Positions 2,544 to 18,615 of a stretch of 32,000 bases of DNA are shown here, one piece after another; positions within the stretch are counted from its first letter, which is position 1; each line of letters begins with the position of its first letter. Source of the stretch: Candidatus Heimdallarchaeota archaeon. Lineage in GTDB: Archaea > Asgardarchaeota > Heimdallarchaeia > Heimdallarchaeales > Heimdallarchaeaceae. The stretch is from positions 1 to 32,000 of the forward strand of contig DAOVER010000001.1 in the NCBI GenBank assembly GCA_030668875.1. The letters are read 5' to 3'. Position numbers and translations under genes: made by a program. Under the pieces are notes generated by a model, which saw nothing but the letters and a program-made list of their open reading frames with translations, did not search any database and was not told where the DNA came from.

Positions 2544-3032
2544 ATGAAACACAACTTTCGATTTCCGGAACAGTATCAATATCAATCTACTTCAGTTTGG
2601 TTAGAAGATATAGGCAGAGGCATATTCAAACTTGGAATAACAGACTATGCACAGTATGTTCTTGATGATATTATCTCAATTACTTTTCCTGAAACAGGAT
2701 ATATAATAGAGAAAGACGAGGAATTGGCCTCAATTGATTCAATTGAAGATACTTTAGTCATTATGTCTCCAATTGGAGGTAAAATCACAGAGATTAATGA
2801 AGAATTAAGACAATCTCCAGAACTTTTAAATGAAAGTCCATTCGAAGATGGTTGGATTTTAATAATTGAAGTCAGTTCGGAGGATGATTTGGATCAATTG
2901 TATGATATAAATGAAATCTTAGATCAACATCAAGAAGAGCTCGCGGACGGTGGCTTTGTTGATGAAGAAAAAGATTTTGATGAAGATTCATATGAGGATT
3001 TAGAAGGTTCTACATCTGATTCAGACTATTAA
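2544..3032 (+). CDS. Glycine cleavage H-like (lipoyl-domain fold) protein lacking the lipoyl lysine, with acidic C-terminal tail
   Basis: GITDYAQ, SPIGGKITEINEEL and PELLNESPFEDGWI match GcvH. The canonical ES-V-K site reads DS-I-E (GAA at 2745-2747). Confidence 0.85.
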   Translation: MKHNFRFPEQYQYQSTSVWLEDIGRGIFKLGITDYAQYVLDDIISITFPETGYIIEKDEELASIDSIEDTLVIMSPIGGKITEINEELRQSPELLNESPFEDGWILIIEVSSEDDLDQLYDINEILDQHQEELADGGFVDEEKDFDEDSYEDLEGSTSDSDY

Positions 3033-3222
3033 ATCTATTTCACTAACCTCTCAATTATCTTGAGTTAGAAACTCTTATATAATTTCGTGATTAAAAAACA
3101 TTAAACAAAACTTGATGGGGCGTATCGTGACTTGGAATTTCTATAACTTCTTCTGAAAACCCCCAGCTAAACAAGTTAACAGTAATTATTTTTTTAAACT
3201 ATGTAACTAGGAGAGGTAAACA

Positions 3223-4713
3223 ATGAGTAATTTAGAAGATAAAGTAGCTTTACCACCTGAAGCCATCAACTTGTATAAAAAAATTAGTTCTTTAAAAGAA
3301 ATTTCTATGAAAGAACTTGAGAAAGAAATGCAACTTGATCGCGGAAAAATGGAATATTTTCTTTCTTTCTTAATTTCAAATGCACTTGTAGAACGAACCA
3401 CAACAGTTAATCAAAAGTATGTATTGACAGATGCTGGAAAACAAGCTGCAGAGAAAGGATTGATTGAAAGACTGATTGTAACTGCACTTTTGAATAAACA
3501 ATCGCTCAATTTCAGCGAACTAGCGAAAATCTTAGAATGCGATAAACAGGAAATGAATGCGGGTATAGGATATTTGAAGAAACTAGGATTACTTCAAATC
3601 ATCCAAGGTAAACTGTCTTTGCTTGATGATAAAACTAAAATAAACGAAGCTATGCAAGAAGTGTTAAAAGAGCTATTAAAAGGCAATGAAGTAGACATAA
3701 CTCAACATCAAAAAGAATTGATTCAAAGAAATCTTGTTTTTGTTGATGAAATTAGGGATTCAATTTTAAAAACCACAATTCCTTATTCCAAGAGCAAATC
3801 AATGATTACAGAATCTGTTGATATAAGTCGCTTAACACCTGCAATGATAAGAGATGGGTCATGGAAGACAACAAAACTAAGATCTTACAATCTTGATGGT
3901 GCTCCCCCCAAATATTATCCTGGTAGAAAACAACCATATGCGCAGTTTCTTGATGAAGTAAAACAAAAACTCGCTGCATTTGGGTTTCAAGAAATGCGTG
4001 GTCCCATAGTTGAATTAGAATACTGGAATTTTGACGCTCTTTTTCAAGCACAAGATCATCCTGCTCGAGAATGGTCTGATGTATACAGAGTTGCTAATCC
4101 AAAGCTAGGAGAACTTCCTAAAGAGAATCATGTCAAACTCGTTCAGAAAGCTCATGAGGATGGGTATGATACTGGAAGTAAAGGATGGAGATACAAATGG
4201 TCTCCTGAAAAAAGCGCAAGGTTAGTTCTTAGAGCACAAGGAACATCAGTAAGTGCAAGAACCTTAGCTAATCTTGCTGTACCCTCAAAATACTTCAGCA
4301 TTTCACGATGTTTTCGACCAGATACTGTTGATGTAACTCACCTTTCTGAATTTAATCAAGCTGAAGGTATTGTTGCGGATACGTCTATAACATTCAGAGA
4401 CTTGTTGGGGATATTGGAAACTTTTGCTCTAGATATTGCAGAAACTGATAAATTTTTTTTCAAACCTGATTATTATCCTTTCACAGAACCTTCTGTCGAG
4501 CTTAGTGTTAGAGATCCCAAATTGGGCAACATTGAATTTGGTGGAGCTGGAATCTTTCGACCAGAAGTTGTTAGACCATTCAATATTGACGTTCCTGTTA
4601 TTGCATGGGGATTAGGTATTGATAGACTCTTCATGGTGAAATATGGAATAACTGATATAAGAGAATTATTCAGTCATAAAATGGAGTGGTTACGCTCAGC
4701 AAAGATGTCTTAA
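3223..4713 (+). CDS. pheS: Phenylalanine--tRNA ligase alpha subunit (archaeal/eukaryotic type with N-terminal winged helices)
   Basis: WNFDALFQAQDHPARE, RCFRPD, HLSEFNQAEG, YYPFTEPS, EFGGAGIFRPEV, AWGLGIDRL. SD-like ggagaggt precedes the ATG. Confidence 0.98.
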   Translation: MSNLEDKVALPPEAINLYKKISSLKEISMKELEKEMQLDRGKMEYFLSFLISNALVERTTTVNQKYVLTDAGKQAAEKGLIERLIVTALLNKQSLNFSELAKILECDKQEMNAGIGYLKKLGLLQIIQGKLSLLDDKTKINEAMQEVLKELLKGNEVDITQHQKELIQRNLVFVDEIRDSILKTTIPYSKSKSMITESVDISRLTPAMIRDGSWKTTKLRSYNLDGAPPKYYPGRKQPYAQFLDEVKQKLAAFGFQEMRGPIVELEYWNFDALFQAQDHPAREWSDVYRVANPKLGELPKENHVKLVQKAHEDGYDTGSKGWRYKWSPEKSARLVLRAQGTSVSARTLANLAVPSKYFSISRCFRPDTVDVTHLSEFNQAEGIVADTSITFRDLLGILETFALDIAETDKFFFKPDYYPFTEPSVELSVRDPKLGNIEFGGAGIFRPEVVRPFNIDVPVIAWGLGIDRLFMVKYGITDIRELFSHKMEWLRSAKMS

Positions 4714-10881: not shown

Positions 10882-12198
10882 ATGTCCACTAATTCAGTTG
10901 CAATTGTGTTTGATATTCGCAAAAAGAACTTCTACAGTTTAACTTCTCTTATTGCGACTATTGATGGGGATACAAATTTAAAAGCCCTTGATCAAATAAT
11001 TACTGGAGACTTATCTAGTAATGATATTAAATCTCTCTTGAAGAAATATACTAAATTAATAATAGCTTACTCTTTTCGAACAAGTCAGTTAGAAGAAATC
11101 TATACAAAAATGAAAACATTCTATTCCTCACTTTCAACAGATGAAATACATAGGGTGACTTTCATCGCTGGAGGAAGTCATCCCACAGGTGACCCACTTA
11201 CAACATTGAAATTTGGCTTTGACTTCTCTTTTATAGGTGAAGCAGAATATTCCCTCCCCTTCTTCTTGAAAAGTTTTTTAGAGAAAGAGGACATTTATGA
11301 AACACCTGGTATCACTTTCTTGGAAAATGAAATTTCTTTATCTTCTACATCTAGACCGCTTCCTATAAATTTAGATGATTACCCCTTTCTATCAAAAAAG
11401 CGAAAACTATATCCCCCGCTCGAAATCACAAGAGGTTGTGGTTTTGCTTGCGCTTTTTGTCAAGTTCCAATGCTGTTCAAACATAGAATCCGTCATAGAT
11501 CTCCTGAGATAATTATAGAACTGGTAAAATGGATGGTAACAGAAAAATTGAATGACATTCGTTTTATCACACCAAATTCTTTTGGTTACATGTCAAAAAG
11601 TGCAAGATCAGTAAACCAAGAAGGTATAATGCATCTGTTAGAAGGTATACGGTCTATTAAGGGAATAAGAAACATTTTTTATGGAACATTTCCTGGAGAA
11701 GTAAGACCTGAAACTGTTTCTGAAGAGCTTTTAACAAAGATTAAACCTCTTATTACAAACAGACGAATTTCAATTGGTCTCCAATCAGGTAGTAATAAGG
11801 TATTAAGGGAAATTAGAAGAGGACACACGGTTGAAGAAGCTGTTTCTGCCATAGATATTTTACTTGCATCAGGATTTACACCAATAGTAGATATAATTGT
11901 AGGATTACCGGGGGCAACAGAAGATGATGAAGAACAAACAATTCAGGTCATTGAGGATTTAGTTCAAAAACAAGCAATAATTCGAGCTCATGTTTTCATG
12001 CCATTGCCTGGAACAGCGTTGGAAGATTCTATTTATCAACCGATTTTTCCAGAAATCAGAAAGAAACTAGGAAGACTAAGTACAATCGGTAAGATTGAAG
12101 GAAATTGGAATCAACAAGAATTATACGCAAAAAGAGCTTGGGAAATGATACAAGACATGCAATCAGTTTCTCCGTTGTCTAGAGAAGATAATCACTGA
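10882..12198 (+). CDS. B12-binding-domain radical SAM protein (MJ1487-like family)
   Basis: IAGGSHPTGDP...GFDFSFIGEAE (B12-binding-like), EITRGCGFACAFCQVP (CxxxCxxC), RHRS, DIRFITPN, GLQSGS...RGH. ATG at 10882 lies 2 nt after the kae1 stop. Confidence 0.88.
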   Translation: MSTNSVAIVFDIRKKNFYSLTSLIATIDGDTNLKALDQIITGDLSSNDIKSLLKKYTKLIIAYSFRTSQLEEIYTKMKTFYSSLSTDEIHRVTFIAGGSHPTGDPLTTLKFGFDFSFIGEAEYSLPFFLKSFLEKEDIYETPGITFLENEISLSSTSRPLPINLDDYPFLSKKRKLYPPLEITRGCGFACAFCQVPMLFKHRIRHRSPEIIIELVKWMVTEKLNDIRFITPNSFGYMSKSARSVNQEGIMHLLEGIRSIKGIRNIFYGTFPGEVRPETVSEELLTKIKPLITNRRISIGLQSGSNKVLREIRRGHTVEEAVSAIDILLASGFTPIVDIIVGLPGATEDDEEQTIQVIEDLVQKQAIIRAHVFMPLPGTALEDSIYQPIFPEIRKKLGRLSTIGKIEGNWNQQELYAKRAWEMIQDMQSVSPLSREDNH

Positions 12199-12868
12199 AA
12201 AGCTGTTCTTCATTTAGATGCCTACCTCTTGCTTCAACTTTTACAGCTCTTTTGAAAATGGTCTTGAAATTATTCACTGTCTCTTTGTATCCTTCTTGAA
12301 AAGCTAAGAAAAGCTCTCTACTATATTCGGTGTGAGTGCTTATGAAACACTTCTTAATTAGCAATATGTCTACTGCTTTATCTTCTATCGCGCTTGAAAA
12401 CTTACCAAGTCCGAAATCAATGAATACTAATTTAGTATCAAGTTCTAGAATGTTGCTAGTTGTTAAATCACCATGAATAATGTCATTATTATGCAATTTT
12501 CCTACTTGTTTACCTATTTCTTTTACAACATTCAGTTTTTTCTGTAATTCTACTTCGCTATCTAAAATATCTTTGACTAATATCCCATCAATATCCTCCA
12601 TAATTATGGTTGTGTTAACTATATCAATCTCAAATACATAAGGTGTAAGCACCCCACTTTTTTTTGCGGATATTAACAATTTTGATTCTGTTACAGTTCT
12701 ACTTTTTCTCAATTCTACATCGAGGGGAGCTATTCGATATTTCTTTGGAATTCTGACTTTTTTCATTGCTTTATAATCTAACCATTCACTTTTACTAAGA
12801 ATTGCCTCTGCTCCCCATTTATCTATGCTAAGATTATCTTTAGAACTATTCTCAGTATGTTCAGCCAT
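12179..12868 (-). CDS. bud32: KEOPS complex kinase/ATPase Bud32 (standalone, not fused to Kae1)
   Basis: GAEAIL, KVRIPKKYR..LD..LRKSRT..E, IIHGDLTTSNI, FIDFGLG, EDKAVD, VEARGR. Confidence 0.95.
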   Translation of the reverse strand: MAEHTENSSKDNLSIDKWGAEAILSKSEWLDYKAMKKVRIPKKYRIAPLDVELRKSRTVTESKLLISAKKSGVLTPYVFEIDIVNTTIIMEDIDGILVKDILDSEVELQKKLNVVKEIGKQVGKLHNNDIIHGDLTTSNILELDTKLVFIDFGLGKFSSAIEDKAVDILLIKKCFISTHTEYSRELFLAFQEGYKETVNNFKTIFKRAVKVEARGRHLNEEQLFSDYLL

Positions 12869-13979: not shown

Positions 13980-14936
13980 TTAGAAACCCATGGTATCGAG
14001 AATGTGCTTGATAATCTTGAATTTATATGCAACATTCATTACATCATTCACATTTGTAGTCATACCTACTAAGATTTTACCTTCTGAACAACCTTCAACT
14101 ATGATTTGTACAACTCCTGCATTAAGGAATTTAATCTCTTCTTTTGACTGTATCATTTCATATATAACACTGGGATATTTGGTTAAAGTCTCTAGAACAT
14201 AGATGATTTTCTTTTCCTCAAGATTTCCTGCGTAAAGTTGCCCCATTGTTCCTTGCTCTTTTGGAAAAATATAAGCTGAAGCTGAAGGTGAATCACAGCT
14301 TCTTATGGAGGAAAATAACAGTGATGTAATTGCTCTTTTATTTGCTTCAGCTAAGATTTCTTGTGTCATTTCAGCTACAGGTATCATGGGGACAGTTTCA
14401 TATGGCTTTATTTTTTCAAATGTTTCAACTCTCGTTTCAGAAGCATTCGTAACAGGATATCTTACTTTTGGAACAAGTACAATTTTCGGTCTTTCAATTC
14501 CAAATCTATCAAAAATGCCTTCTATTTTATTACGTATAGAAGAGAAACCTTCTGCCATTATACTTTTACAAGTGAGTTCTAACAGATCTGTTGGGTCTTC
14601 TGCATTAAGAGAGTCAAGAAGAGTATTCCCTAGCACTTCAATATAATTTCCAATTAGAGGACGAAGTTCTATCGAAAAATTTTCTACACGAGAAACAAAT
14701 AAAATAGTTAAATCAATGAAAGTAACATACGTTGCTCTGAATCTTCCTCTAAAAATTGTAATTTCACTATATCTTCTAACCCACTGATAAAACTCTATTG
14801 GATGAATAAAGTATCTATTTACCTCAATTCTTTCTATTTCACTCTTTATTTTATCAATAGTGAAAATGTTAGCTCCTTTTGTATCATATATTATAATCGC
14901 TACCAAGGGGCTAATGTCAATCTCTGGAAATAGCAT
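13980..14936 (-). CDS. Hypothetical protein: N-terminal longin-like + C-terminal roadblock/LC7-like domain (paralog A)
   Basis: ATG at 14936 is preferred (ORF track extends to 15011). N-terminal VAIIIYDTKG..; C-terminal domain ...SASAYIF...LETLTKYPSVI...EIKFLNAGVVQIIVEG...ILVGMT aligns with the ORFs at 15078 and 16326. Confidence 0.65.
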   Translation of the reverse strand: MLFPEIDISPLVAIIIYDTKGANIFTIDKIKSEIERIEVNRYFIHPIEFYQWVRRYSEITIFRGRFRATYVTFIDLTILFVSRVENFSIELRPLIGNYIEVLGNTLLDSLNAEDPTDLLELTCKSIMAEGFSSIRNKIEGIFDRFGIERPKIVLVPKVRYPVTNASETRVETFEKIKPYETVPMIPVAEMTQEILAEANKRAITSLLFSSIRSCDSPSASAYIFPKEQGTMGQLYAGNLEEKKIIYVLETLTKYPSVIYEMIQSKEEIKFLNAGVVQIIVEGCSEGKILVGMTTNVNDVMNVAYKFKIIKHILDTMGF

Positions 14937-15077
14937 AAGACCTCTGTCTAAAATTATGCAATTCTTTGCTAATAAGCTTATTGGACAACTTTTGTATGTG
15001 AATAATTGCATAATTAGTCAACGGAACCAAAGAAATATTTTTAGATTTTAGTATTATAATGAATATGAGGTTATGTA

Positions 15078-15659
15078 ATGAGTAAGAATTCTAGTAATTC
15101 AAAACCACCATCAACAAAGATATCTTCCAGAAAGAGAAAAACTGTAAAGAAAGATATATTTGTAGAAATGGAAGAAATTGCTTACGAGGCTTTAAATATC
15201 TCAAAACGCAAACTAAAGAGTGGACAATATCTTAAAGATTTTCTAAATCAAACTTCATCAAAAGATTCTGTTCTCGAAGCAATTAAAGTTACTATCGATG
15301 CTCTATTAGATAGCATAGCTTCTGATTTGGACTCACTTTCAGCAGCGGCTTTAGTTCCACACCCTGAGAGTGAAGAACCAAAAGCAATTGTTAGAGGACC
15401 TTTAAATCGAGAGATTGTAAAACAAATTTTAACTATATTTAGAAAATACCCTCCTGTTATTAATGACCTTCTTGGGTCTGATGACGAATTAAAAGTTCTT
15501 GATACTGGAATTGGTTATGTAGTCTTAGAAAATTGTCAGAAGGATAATTATTTGGTTGGGATAGTTAAAAAACAAAAAGATGTTGATGAATTATCTAGAA
15601 AACTAAGACATGTACAGCAAGTAGTTGTTGACAATACTTTACTTCTTGATGGATTGTAG
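15078..15659 (+). CDS. Hypothetical protein: basic N-terminal extension + roadblock/LC7-like domain (paralog B)
   Basis: IDALLDSIASDLDSLSAAALV (roadblock-like helix1-strand1), ILTIFRKYPPVI, ELKVLDTGIGYVVLE, YLVGIVK, terminal helix. Confidence 0.7.
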   Translation: MSKNSSNSKPPSTKISSRKRKTVKKDIFVEMEEIAYEALNISKRKLKSGQYLKDFLNQTSSKDSVLEAIKVTIDALLDSIASDLDSLSAAALVPHPESEEPKAIVRGPLNREIVKQILTIFRKYPPVINDLLGSDDELKVLDTGIGYVVLENCQKDNYLVGIVKKQKDVDELSRKLRHVQQVVVDNTLLLDGL

Positions 15660-15664
15660 AATGT

Positions 15665-16318
15665 TTAACGTCTATCAGTCAAACTTTTATTGCAATTCTC
15701 ACAATAATCCTGTTCTAGATGTACTTCCTTGAAACAGTTCCAACATCTCTTTAAAGATGTTTCTTGTTTTGAATAATCATGAATTATCTTCTCAATTTCA
15801 TTAGCAATTTCAAGCATTGCTTTGTACCTATTAGACTTCGCATATGAGAATAATTTAGTTAATGGATTGTGAAATATCACAGCTAGAACAGCTAATACAA
15901 CAGAAGAAATTCCAACTAGTAGTAATGCTTGAGCATTTTGCCAATATACTGTGATTAAGACAATTAATACACTTAACAACGCAATTAAAATGGTTACCGA
16001 AGCCATTCTAACTCCAAACAGTCGCTTGTTTAATAATGAGTTGAAGAATTGTTTAACACTTGAATTTTTTGAAATAAAATCAAGTTTAAGGAAATTTCCT
16101 TCCACAGAATCTTGAATCCTTACTACAACTTTCTGTAGTTGTATTTTTGTAATGAATAATAGTGTCTTATTTTCTTGTAATCTAATATCTGGATATTTAT
16201 ATTTCAACTGTTTAATAATATGCATGAAAAGATTTGATGTATTCTTAATGTCTGTACTGATATCTTTTGAAAATGTTATGTGTTCGTGTTGTACTGCGAA
16301 AACGATTGTACTCACCAT
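15665..16318 (-). CDS. Two-TM membrane protein with C-terminal zinc ribbon
   Basis: TM pair VTILIALLSVLIVLITVYW and ALLLVGISSVVLAVLAVIF; C-terminal CWNC-x10-CENC. Starts 7 nt downstream of the 16326-17393 stop. Confidence 0.75.
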   Translation of the reverse strand: MVSTIVFAVQHEHITFSKDISTDIKNTSNLFMHIIKQLKYKYPDIRLQENKTLLFITKIQLQKVVVRIQDSVEGNFLKLDFISKNSSVKQFFNSLLNKRLFGVRMASVTILIALLSVLIVLITVYWQNAQALLLVGISSVVLAVLAVIFHNPLTKLFSYAKSNRYKAMLEIANEIEKIIHDYSKQETSLKRCWNCFKEVHLEQDYCENCNKSLTDRR

Positions 16319-16325
16319 CCGTTTT

Positions 16326-17393
16326 TCAGAATGTGGATATCAAAAACTCAGATATCATTACCTTAACAAGTTTCATTCTTTTAGCTATAATGGGTATTTC
16401 TTCCCTGTTTTTTGTAATACTTACAAGAATTCCATTACTAGATCCCTCTAAAATAACTACTCCATCTCCTGCATCTATAGTTTTTTCATCAGATTCTGTT
16501 TCCAAAGTTTGTTTCACAATTTCAGGATATTTTGAGAGGATTCCTAAAACAAACTCTCCATGCTTTTCGGACATACCGAATGTGATGGTTTCTAAATCTC
16601 CTTTTTCCCCTGTATAAACAAAACATACACCTGTTTTTGTTGATAATCCTTTAACGATAGAGGATAAAACCCTCTCAACTGATAGCCTCTTTGTTTCTTC
16701 CAATAGTTGTTGTGTTAGTTCTACTTTGTTTGAATCCTTAACTAATACTGTTTTCTTATCTGATTTTTGACCAATGAATTCAAGGAGACCTCCAACATCT
16801 GTAGATGCTGTTGAGTCTGCTGCTTGGGCAGAACTAGATGTTGCTGCAGACTGTGAATGATTTTGTTCCATTTCTACGTTTTTCTCTACTTTTGTTGAAA
16901 CTGGTTCCCCTGTACTAATTTGCTCAACCATCGATGTTTCAACTTGTTGAGGTTTTTTAGTTGGATAATAGTCGTATTTGACTTGACTTGATGCTCTTTC
17001 GGAGATTAGGCTACCTAATCGTTTAATCAAAGCTGTCTGTGATTTTGGTTCCATTTTATCGATAGCTCCATATTCACGCAACTGATCGACAAGTTTATTC
17101 TTTATAATTTCAATTATACTTTCTGCAATCTGATCTTCAATATCTGGTAGAAACATGCAGCTTAATATTATATTAAAAAAAAGATGATAATCGACTCTAA
17201 ATATCTCGTTTTTGAGTGTTATAGCTTGTGATTTTCTTAATTCTTCCCTTGTTTTTGCACTTGTATCAATTACTTGAAAAACTGTTGAAAATGCAGTTTT
17301 TTGGTTAATTACTTTATCGAAAATCATGTCCTCATCTAATGTAAAGAGGCTAAAACCTACAAACTTATTCCAAGGTAAATCGAACTCACTCAT
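16326..17393 (-). CDS. Hypothetical protein: N-terminal longin-like domain, Ser/Thr/Ala-rich linker, C-terminal roadblock/LC7-like domain (paralog C)
   Basis: Strong SD gtgaggt upstream. FVGFSLFT..; linker QSAATSSSAQAADSTAS; C-terminal VLGILSKYPEIV...EKTIDAGDGVVILEG...ILVSIT. Confidence 0.7.
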   Translation of the reverse strand: MSEFDLPWNKFVGFSLFTLDEDMIFDKVINQKTAFSTVFQVIDTSAKTREELRKSQAITLKNEIFRVDYHLFFNIILSCMFLPDIEDQIAESIIEIIKNKLVDQLREYGAIDKMEPKSQTALIKRLGSLISERASSQVKYDYYPTKKPQQVETSMVEQISTGEPVSTKVEKNVEMEQNHSQSAATSSSAQAADSTASTDVGGLLEFIGQKSDKKTVLVKDSNKVELTQQLLEETKRLSVERVLSSIVKGLSTKTGVCFVYTGEKGDLETITFGMSEKHGEFVLGILSKYPEIVKQTLETESDEKTIDAGDGVVILEGSSNGILVSITKNREEIPIIAKRMKLVKVMISEFLISTF

Positions 17394-17493: not shown

Positions 17494-18615
17494 CTATTTC
17501 TTCTTTTTCTTTTTCTTCTTTTTATCATCTTTTTGTTGTTGTCTAGCAATTTTCTTCCATTTTTTGAGGTTTCTATTTGATTCTTGTCCAAAAACTACAG
17601 CTGAATACTTCCTTCCTTCAGTTTCACCTAAACCTCTTATAGTTAGATTTTCTTCTTCTTCCCTTTTCTTTGTTTCTTGGAGCATCTGTTGAATTATCTC
17701 TTCCCTTCTCTTCATCTTAGCTTGAAGTTCAGGATCAATTTCTACTTCTGGTTCGGGAACTACTTCTGGTTCGGGAACTACTTCTGACTCAAGAATTTTT
17801 TTCGTGGCAATCTTTTCTTCAATTATTGCAATTTCTTTGATTAAAGAGATATCTTCGGTTTCTAATTCCTTTTCCTGTACTTCTACATGTGGAATCTCTT
17901 CTTCTGCAATGGGAACACTTGATGCTTCCTCAACGAATACAAACTTATGAACATCCTCTGGAATATTTTCTGGTTTGATTTGAATATCTTCATCAATCAC
18001 AGGTTCAGTGACTATAGGAGCAGACGAATCTATTGTTTCAATTTCAGTACTAAGATGATCAAGGATTTCTAGTTGTTCAGTTCCTATTGCCTCAGCTTCT
18101 TGAATCTCTTGTTCTGTTTTCAGTTTTTCCGAATCTATTTCTATTTTAGGTTCAGTCACAGAAGACTCTACTGTAGATTCAGCTGGTTGAGTTAATAATT
18201 TTTTAAGAGCTGTTTCTTTTTCATCAGAAGGTAGTGGGATTTTTTCTTGTTCAATTATTTCTTTAATATCTTCCAAATTTGTGTCAGAAATAATCTCTTC
18301 TACATCTTCTCCTGATACTGCTTTAGCTAAACCGATAGTCACTTCTTCAAGCTCTCTAGATCTCTTTATTTGCTCTTCAACAACACCTTCTTCAATGACT
18401 GGCTCTACTTCTTCAACAACACTTTCTTCAATGACTGGCTCTACTTCTTCAACAACACTTTCTTCAATAGTTACCTCTTGTTTTTTCAATTCATCTGCTT
18501 GCGTTGCTTCTTCTTTGGCTTTAGTCTTTGCTAAATCATACAAATATTGGGCAAATCTAGATATATTCTTCTTGTCCCATTCAAGCACTTCGTTCTCTTT
18601 TCCGTTGGAATTCAT
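17494..18615 (-). CDS. Glu-rich low-complexity, probably disordered protein with poly-Lys C-terminus
   Basis: 373-aa ORF dominated by E/V/I/P, with internal tandem repeats; ends KKWKK...DDKKKKKKKKK. Confidence 0.75.
   Translation of the reverse strand: MNSNGKENEVLEWDKKNISRFAQYLYDLAKTKAKEEATQADELKKQEVTIEESVVEEVEPVIEESVVEEVEPVIEEGVVEEQIKRSRELEEVTIGLAKAVSGEDVEEIISDTNLEDIKEIIEQEKIPLPSDEKETALKKLLTQPAESTVESSVTEPKIEIDSEKLKTEQEIQEAEAIGTEQLEILDHLSTEIETIDSSAPIVTEPVIDEDIQIKPENIPEDVHKFVFVEEASSVPIAEEEIPHVEVQEKELETEDISLIKEIAIIEEKIATKKILESEVVPEPEVVPEPEVEIDPELQAKMKRREEIIQQMLQETKKREEEENLTIRGLGETEGRKYSAVVFGQESNRNLKKWKKIARQQQKDDKKKKKKKKK
17742..17786. repeat. 18-bp tandem repeat, ~2.5 copies (encodes VVPEPE)
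   Basis: ctacttctggttcgggaa at 17742 and 17760, partial at 17778. Confidence 0.9.
18374..18468. repeat. 36-bp tandem repeat, ~2.6 copies (encodes EESVVEEVEPVI)
   Basis: tcttcaacaacac(c/t)ttcttcaatgactggctctact at 18374 and 18410, partial at 18446. Confidence 0.9.

Follow-up and report, generated by a model that had tools for sequence, protein, structure and literature searches.

Dimers of longin and roadblock domains are platforms for the switching of Rab, Rag and Arf GTPases in eukaryotic cells, and the Asgard archaea are known to hold many domains of both kinds. To our knowledge, all longin and roadblock proteins of characterised structure form like-with-like pairs through an edge strand. 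The locus described here lies in a window of 32,000 nucleotides, by which we mean the whole stretch of DNA that was analysed, from a member of the Heimdallarchaeaceae (Candidatus Heimdallarchaeota archaeon, assembly GCA_030668875.1, contig DAOVER010000001.1, positions 1 to 32,000); it holds two genes, A and C, each predicted to encode a longin domain followed, after a disordered linker, by a roadblock domain, and a third gene, B, for a related roadblock-type domain with no longin.

Longin and roadblock dimers have been described as the usual GTPase platforms (PMC3747258; PMC10933270), and the closest architectural parallel to A and C is found in the LD1-LD2 part of the tri-longin Rab guanine nucleotide exchange factors (GEFs) Mon1-Ccz1, Fuzzy-Inturned and BLOC-3. 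The three domains carried in one chain by Mon1 and Ccz1, LD1 to LD3, are respectively a canonical longin, a roadblock and a lamtor-type domain (Klink et al. 2022, PMC8833172), and an alphaX-betaX connector in the linker that joins LD1 to LD2 has been said to define this group (PMC8833172). Eukaryotic paralog pairs of longin-roadblock build are mostly obligate heterodimers (PMC8833172). The preliminary description of the window had placed the eukaryotic longin and roadblock modules on separate proteins; this was incomplete, as Mon1, Ccz1, Fuzzy, Inturned and the BLOC-3 subunits all fuse LD1 to LD2. Another branch, the longins of GTPase-activating protein (GAP) type, has as its marks an arginine finger and a GP motif that precedes strand 2 (PMC12290439). 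Among the Asgard archaea, about 130 roadblock and longin gene families with lineage-specific domain shuffling have been reported (bioRxiv 10.1101/2020.10.19.343400), and Loki archaea (MK-D1) possess longin-GTPase-roadblock fusions (PMC10933270). In the literature searched, no description was found of an archaeal protein joining longin directly to roadblock, or of one resembling Mon1 or Ccz1.

The open reading frames (ORFs) of A and C are both present where the preliminary description had put them, and the three genes and their domains are as follows.

13980-14936, minus strand: gene A, 318 amino acids from the conserved start (homolog lengths and family profile)
14499-14909, minus strand: A residues 10-146, predicted longin domain of two strands, a broken helix, three strands and two helices (AlphaFold2, structure matches)
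14367-14498, minus strand: A residues 147-190, linker of low model confidence (AlphaFold2, conservation)
13983-14366, minus strand: A residues 191-318, predicted roadblock domain (AlphaFold2, structure matches)
15078-15659, plus strand: gene B, 193 amino acids, with a basic N-terminus, a YLKDFLNQ motif and one roadblock-type domain
about 15261-15626, plus strand: roadblock-type domain of B, paralogous by sequence to the C-terminal domains of A and C (BLASTP 2e-14, 3e-10; hidden Markov model (HMM) E 3.6e-13, 1.8e-13)
16326-17393, minus strand: gene C, 355 amino acids (ORF)
16962-17369, minus strand: C residues 9-144, predicted longin domain (AlphaFold2, structure matches)
16731-16961, minus strand: C residues 145-221, low-complexity variable linker (AlphaFold2, conservation)
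16329-16730, minus strand: C residues 222-355, predicted roadblock domain (AlphaFold2, structure matches)

The longest ORF of A spans 343 amino acids (13980-15011, minus strand); its homologs, with few exceptions, have 314-327 amino acids, the alignment starting at Met26 of that frame, and positions 1-318 of the family profile map to 13983-14936. Because of these homolog lengths and of the alignment from Met26, A was taken as a protein of 318 amino acids starting at 14936. The 25 additional N-terminal codons (14937-15011) are unconserved, and the conserved start leaves a divergent intergenic region of 141 bp between A and B.

AlphaFold2 models were built on family alignments of 38 sequences for C and 31 for A, shallow and made of close relatives. 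Mean confidence by the predicted local distance difference test (pLDDT) was 68.0 for C and 69.5 for A, the domain cores reaching mostly about 75-88 and the linkers falling below 50. Both proteins are predicted to have a common layout, consisting of an N-terminal longin, a disordered and poorly conserved linker and a C-terminal roadblock. The N-terminal half of A is modelled as strands 11-17 and 23-28, a helix broken into 33-43 and 47-54, strands 58-63, 66-73 and 76-83, and helices 92-111 and 117-145; its counterpart in C shows strands 11-18 and 23-28, helix 46-55, strands 57-61, 66-72 and 75-81, and helices 87-106 and 116-142. After a low-confidence region with pLDDT below 50 (151-186 in A; 145-221 in C, with a short helix at 202-206), the C-terminal half of A continues as helix 192-211, strands 218-225 and 231-237, helix 241-263, strands 270-272, 277-282 and 288-293, and helix 297-316, and that of C as helix 222-247, strands 255-261 and 267-272, helix 276-298, strands 305-307, 312-317 and 321-327, and helix 330-351. 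The strands and helices that the preliminary description had read from the letters are matched nearly residue for residue by these models.

The families are constrained in the same pattern. Mean pairwise identity reaches 0.68 in the N-terminal domain, 0.30 in the linker and 0.73 in the C-terminal domain of the C family, with corresponding values of 0.55, 0.43 and 0.76 in the A family; both domains are under purifying conservation and the linkers are not. The linker of C, previously described as low-complexity, is so indeed, and is poorly conserved as well. Each linker nevertheless holds one conserved motif just upstream of the first roadblock helix: G-VE-LLEFIG-K (about residues 198-209) in C, coinciding with the short helix, and the proline-rich ETFE-I-PFE-VP-IP in A. 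In B, the short and conserved YLKDFLNQ aligns with the motif of C. The duplicated unit therefore seems to have been the motif together with the roadblock domain.

Comparison of the models with solved structures (VIA), where the aligned ranges fall apart into the two domains, bears out the order of longin and then roadblock. Residues 9-144 of C resemble the longins of delta-COP, AP mu and sigma subunits, VAMP7, Sec22b and zeta-COP at Z 9.8-11.5, with a root-mean-square deviation (rmsd) of about 3 A over 114-121 residues; the best match is delta-COP (9qpq_L, Z 11.5, rmsd 3.1 A over 118 residues), other examples being AP2 mu (Z 11.2), VAMP7 (Z 10.6) and Sec22b (Z 9.8), and these coat and SNARE scores tie with those of TRAPP and other GTPase-platform longins. 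The N-terminal domain of A is the weaker case. For its residues 10-123, AP-3 sigma scores Z 8.1 (rmsd 2.5 A over 99 residues), and synbindin and a roadblock protein, MP1, both stand at Z 7.9, so that the longin label for this modelled domain leans on topology as much as on score. As for the C-terminal domains, residues 232-354 of C match a Roadblock/LC7 protein (3leq) at Z 10.7 (rmsd 2.6 A over 99 residues) and LAMTOR2, MglB and the Gtr/Rag C-terminal domain at Z 9.4-10, and residues 194-318 of A match roadblock folds at Z 9-10.4, where the LD2 of Chaetomium Mon1 (9rs7_A 366-519, Z 10.4), MglB (10.3) and LAMTOR2 (9.9) are ties. As modelled, the N-terminal domains of A and C both have the longin fold and their C-terminal domains the Roadblock/LC7 fold; the AlphaFold2 models and structure searches were also examined for N-terminal domains of non-longin or mutually unrelated fold, and none appeared.

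Searched with Foldseek at full length, A finds as its best matches full-length, collinear subunits of tri-longin GEFs, with E values from 2.6e-6 to 1e-3, ahead of any single-domain match. These are BLOC-3 (8zwc_A, E 2.6e-6), several Mon1 structures (8jbe_C at 7.5e-6 and 9lol_B at 5.1e-5, with 8c7g_C and 9rs7_A within E 7.5e-6 to 6.9e-5), CPLANE (7q3e_B, E 8.2e-5) and Fuzzy-Inturned (9rs8_B, E 3.5e-4). C recovers the same targets more weakly, with Mon1 at E about 8e-3. The full-length matches have an rmsd of 17-18 A, which is expected because the inter-domain geometry of the models is arbitrary; what they have in common with A and C is the fold and the order of the domains, not their packing.

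Clear paralogy by sequence links the C-terminal domains of A, B and C: their last 120 residues or so are related at BLASTP E values of 2e-15, 2e-14 and 3e-10, and the excised domains of A and C align with hhalign at 2.5e-15. Between the N-terminal halves of A and C, BLASTP finds no similarity, and a profile comparison limited to the N-terminal domains is not significant (hhalign E 0.039). The whole-length profile alignment of C with A does extend into the N-terminal domain, in register with the predicted strands, and pairs ITIFRGRFRATY of A with ITLKNEIFRVDY of C; the common F-R-x-x-Y is made of residues invariant within each family. Fold, position and this strand motif make it likely that the two N-terminal domains are homologous. 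Invariant residues of the N-terminal domain of A are Y17, D18 and G21, and F62, R63, G64, R67, A68 and T69; on the hairpin of strands 3 and 4, the invariant arginines are R63 and R67 in A and R66 in C, positions that could be compared with the arginine finger of GAP-type longins.

Beyond these three families, sequence searches return little. A, B and C have no Pfam match, and no longin or roadblock family was reached at E <= 1 when 69 aligned homologs were included; the Robl_LC7 model (PF03259) matched none of the 69 family members scanned. The A and C profiles gave no meaningful match to PDB chains. A phmmer search over 1.84 billion representatives returned only 9 clusters, all of them close relatives or paralogs, and word-indexed searches returned only Heimdallarchaeaceae proteins. 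A search for longer or fused family members found none, which is weak evidence. Look-ups in a protein atlas stayed below threshold: Asgard clusters came up at values of at most 0.90, and at 0.84 there were Loki proteins with the automatic name "First Longin domain of FUZ, MON1 and HPS1".

Against the known systems, A and C can now be placed as follows. With the tri-longin Rab GEF subunits (Mon1, Ccz1, Fuzzy, Inturned, HPS1 and HPS4) they share a chain of longin, linker and roadblock and its occurrence in two paralogous chains. Nonetheless, those subunits have three domains, whereas A and C have two folded domains and lack the lamtor-type LD3, and the Pfam models Fuz_longin_1 and Fuz_longin_2, scanned over the organism's own genome, miss A and C at E <= 10. 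In the place of the alphaX-betaX connector of tri-longin GEFs, the linker of C has a conserved short helix motif and that of A a conserved proline-rich motif; they lie in low-confidence stretches of the monomer models and may or may not correspond to the connector. By domain number, Pfam and PDB sequence matches, A and C thus fall outside the tri-longin Rab GEFs. The C-terminal domains of A, B and C have the predicted fold and size of stand-alone roadblocks (MglB, MglC, LAMTOR2/3, Asgard Roadblock2/3 and the Rag/Gtr C-terminal domains), at Z 9-10.7; in A and C, however, the domain is fused to a longin, and A, B and C lack the Robl_LC7 match. Known Asgard fusions (the longin-GTPase-roadblock proteins of Loki archaea, the longin-TRAPPC3 of Heimdall archaea, FLCN-like longin-DENN proteins and NPRL2-like longins) belong to the same superfamily with lineage-specific architectures of their own (PMC10933270; bioRxiv 10.1101/2020.10.19.343400), while in A and C the two modules are neither separated nor followed by a GTPase, TRAPPC3 or DENN domain.

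The A/B/C family is restricted to the Heimdallarchaeaceae, with one partial relative in a sister family. The A profile is found in 27/29 other Heimdallarchaeaceae genomes, covering five genera, and in 0/52 genomes from the other six families of the class; the C profile is found in 25/27 genomes of the family and in none of 28 other Asgard families sampled, bar one sister-family genome (G001). The protein concerned is a 346-amino-acid ORF (L022:8050-9090, minus strand), where only the C-terminal domain is related to that of C (hhalign 3.7e-9), and where the N-terminal alpha/beta domain is preceded by a helix and is unlike A and C in sequence; the 346-amino-acid ORF lies in a different gene context, adjoining a weak gelsolin-like ORF. 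A scan of the organism's own genome for extra copies found no second copy of either N-terminal domain, and no C-terminal domain beyond those of A, B and C. Across genera, B is the most conserved of the three proteins (57-75% identity, compared with 38-56% for A and 48-59% for C), and its start (15078-15230) is a Lys/Arg-rich stretch of about 50 residues, probably disordered.

A and C are clustered in the five genera examined, and lie within about 3 kb of each other in four of the five. The gene order across genera, complete in one genus and present as shorter runs in the others, is JAMM, kinase, acidic protein, C, B, A, AIR-synthase-like, Bud32, radical SAM and Kae1. Two further genes of the window adjoin A, B and C.

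15665-16318, minus strand: protein of 217 amino acids with two membrane helices and a C-terminal zinc ribbon, between B and C, in only two of five genera
17494-18615, minus strand: acidic, repeat-rich protein of 373 amino acids ending in ten lysines, directly upstream of C on the same strand

Since it is found in only two of the five genera (of the four genera checked besides that of the window, two lack it), the membrane/zinc-ribbon gene is not a core part of the locus. The first 100 residues of its product show by eye a strand-strand-helix-strand-strand-strand-helix pattern; considered as a fourth paralog, this N-terminal part was rejected, with no hhalign signal against A, B or C and an unconserved KYKYP string. 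The acidic protein stands upstream of C, on C's strand, in 5/5 genera (that of the window and four others), and is a possible partner; by analogy with LAMTOR1 in Ragulator, it might serve as an extended scaffold or membrane tether. It is conserved only in parts, mainly in its C-terminal region, and in one genome (G004) the segment with this gene and C is inverted relative to the window.

Candidate client GTPases abound in the organism's own genome, with about 38 Ras-like and 2 Rag/Gtr-like genes. The same genome has 6-7 canonical roadblock genes, none of them in the window, and these are unmatched by the A, B and C family HMMs. On contig C69, a 294-amino-acid ORF includes a sub-threshold Fuz_longin_1-like stretch (11352-11534, E 1.8e-4) and has a Ras-like GTPase gene (12109-12621) at a distance of about 600 bp, and a canonical roadblock gene of the same contig (3435-3701) adjoins another GTPase gene (2815-3324). 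As operon-linked GTPase regulators, these C69 genes are more promising than A and C.

In our proposal, which we hold to have about an even chance of being right, A and C are two-domain paralogs that, together with B, would form a platform for binding and regulating a small GTPase. Each of A and C would contribute a longin, a flexible linker with one short conserved motif and a roadblock, and B the motif and the roadblock only. The longin of A would pair with the longin of C, and the roadblock domains of A, C and B would pair among themselves, a like-with-like arrangement proposed because all solved longin and roadblock members adopt it. Such pairing would give a pseudo-symmetric, layered platform that would bind and regulate a small GTPase, of which the organism has many, whether by GEF or GAP activity or as a scaffold. 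Dimerisation, the choice of partners, GTPase binding and the direction of regulation are all inferred here by analogy with the systems cited above. A more specific version, which we consider very unlikely, would have A, C and B jointly make up an archaeal counterpart, in split form, of the tri-longin Rab GEFs, activating a Rab-like GTPase at a membrane; A and C would then give the catalytic LD1 pair with its flanking LD2 domains, B would supply the central LD3-like pair in trans, and the conserved linker motifs would act as the alphaX connector.

Several observations weigh against the proposed heterodimeric platform, and some of them favour instead a reading that we judge somewhat unlikely, in which the folds are the same and A and C act apart, as homodimers or with other partners, having diverged to different clients after duplication. 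In one genus, the G004 genome (91% complete) keeps B and C and is missing A at the locus, with no A-like N-terminal domain at E <= 1 and with the AIR-synthase-like gene directly beside B, 170 bp away (locus L015, G004:C80, 5058-5229). A, B and C occupy three separate transcription units, sequence comparison no longer recognises a relation between the N-terminal domains of A and C, only one two-domain relative and no trio occurs in the sister family, and the solved Asgard roadblocks (9jue, 9jq8) are homodimers. Separate action would sit less well with the co-occurrence of the two genes within about 3 kb in four of five genera, and with the mostly obligate heterodimers formed by eukaryotic paralog pairs of like build (PMC8833172). 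The clustering itself is weak evidence of a functional module, because the conserved order includes genes of plainly unrelated function: Kae1, Bud32, the AIR-synthase-like gene, the kinase and the JAMM protease are equally syntenic with A, B and C, and the clustering may reflect shared descent rather than shared function. Also on the negative side of the proposal, model confidence is moderate and the alignments shallow, the Pfam longin and roadblock models are unmatched by the three proteins, and A and C lack the signature of the GAP-type longins (FLCN, NPRL2, SMCR8, C9orf72 and their Asgard look-alikes): the loop between strands 1 and 2 reads YD-KG-N in A and LDEDM in C, the GP motif being missing from both.

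The lack of any GTPase gene within the window counts against the proposed platform too, and is shared ground with a further alternative, one that seems to us quite unlikely, where A and C would be structural or adaptor subunits that do not touch GTPases, in the manner of the adaptor and coatomer longin cores, SNARE longins or dynein LC7. The N-terminal domain of C has delta-COP, AP mu/sigma and SNARE longins as its best matches, and attachment to membranes may come from B's basic N-terminus or from the run of lysines that ends the acidic protein encoded upstream of C. Nonetheless, as seen above, those Z scores are tied with TRAPP and other GTPase-platform longins, and the cluster has no coat or SNARE partner domains. 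Fold matching is finally not exclusive, another point that tells against the proposal: alpha/beta folds of roadblock size match GAF, IclR-effector and profilin domains as well, at Z 7.5-9.7, and the C-terminal domain of A scores Z 9.7 with a GAF domain (2qyb_A) and Z 7.7-8.5 with IclR effector domains, near its roadblock scores. That one or both domains are small-molecule sensors of GAF, PAS or IclR-effector type is nevertheless highly improbable, given that the order of strands and helices and the size of about 125 residues fit a roadblock exactly, that most of the top structure matches, and all of those in the Foldseek lists, are roadblock or longin, and that no output or DNA-binding domain is attached.

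The longin-roadblock chain predicted for A and C counts, as far as the literature searched shows, as a new variation within a well-known superfamily, restricted to one archaeal family. This confinement, which fits the lineage-specific domain shuffling known in Asgard archaea, speaks against a deep evolutionary role. If the split version of the proposal were true, the locus would hold a relative of the Mon1-Ccz1 design in a prokaryote, or a case in which that design had been reinvented independently. More broadly, should A and C prove to form a heterodimeric GTPase regulator, they would serve as a compact model, suited to bacterial expression, for the LD1-LD2 core of tri-longin GEFs, and would allow a test of whether the tri-longin design predates eukaryotes.

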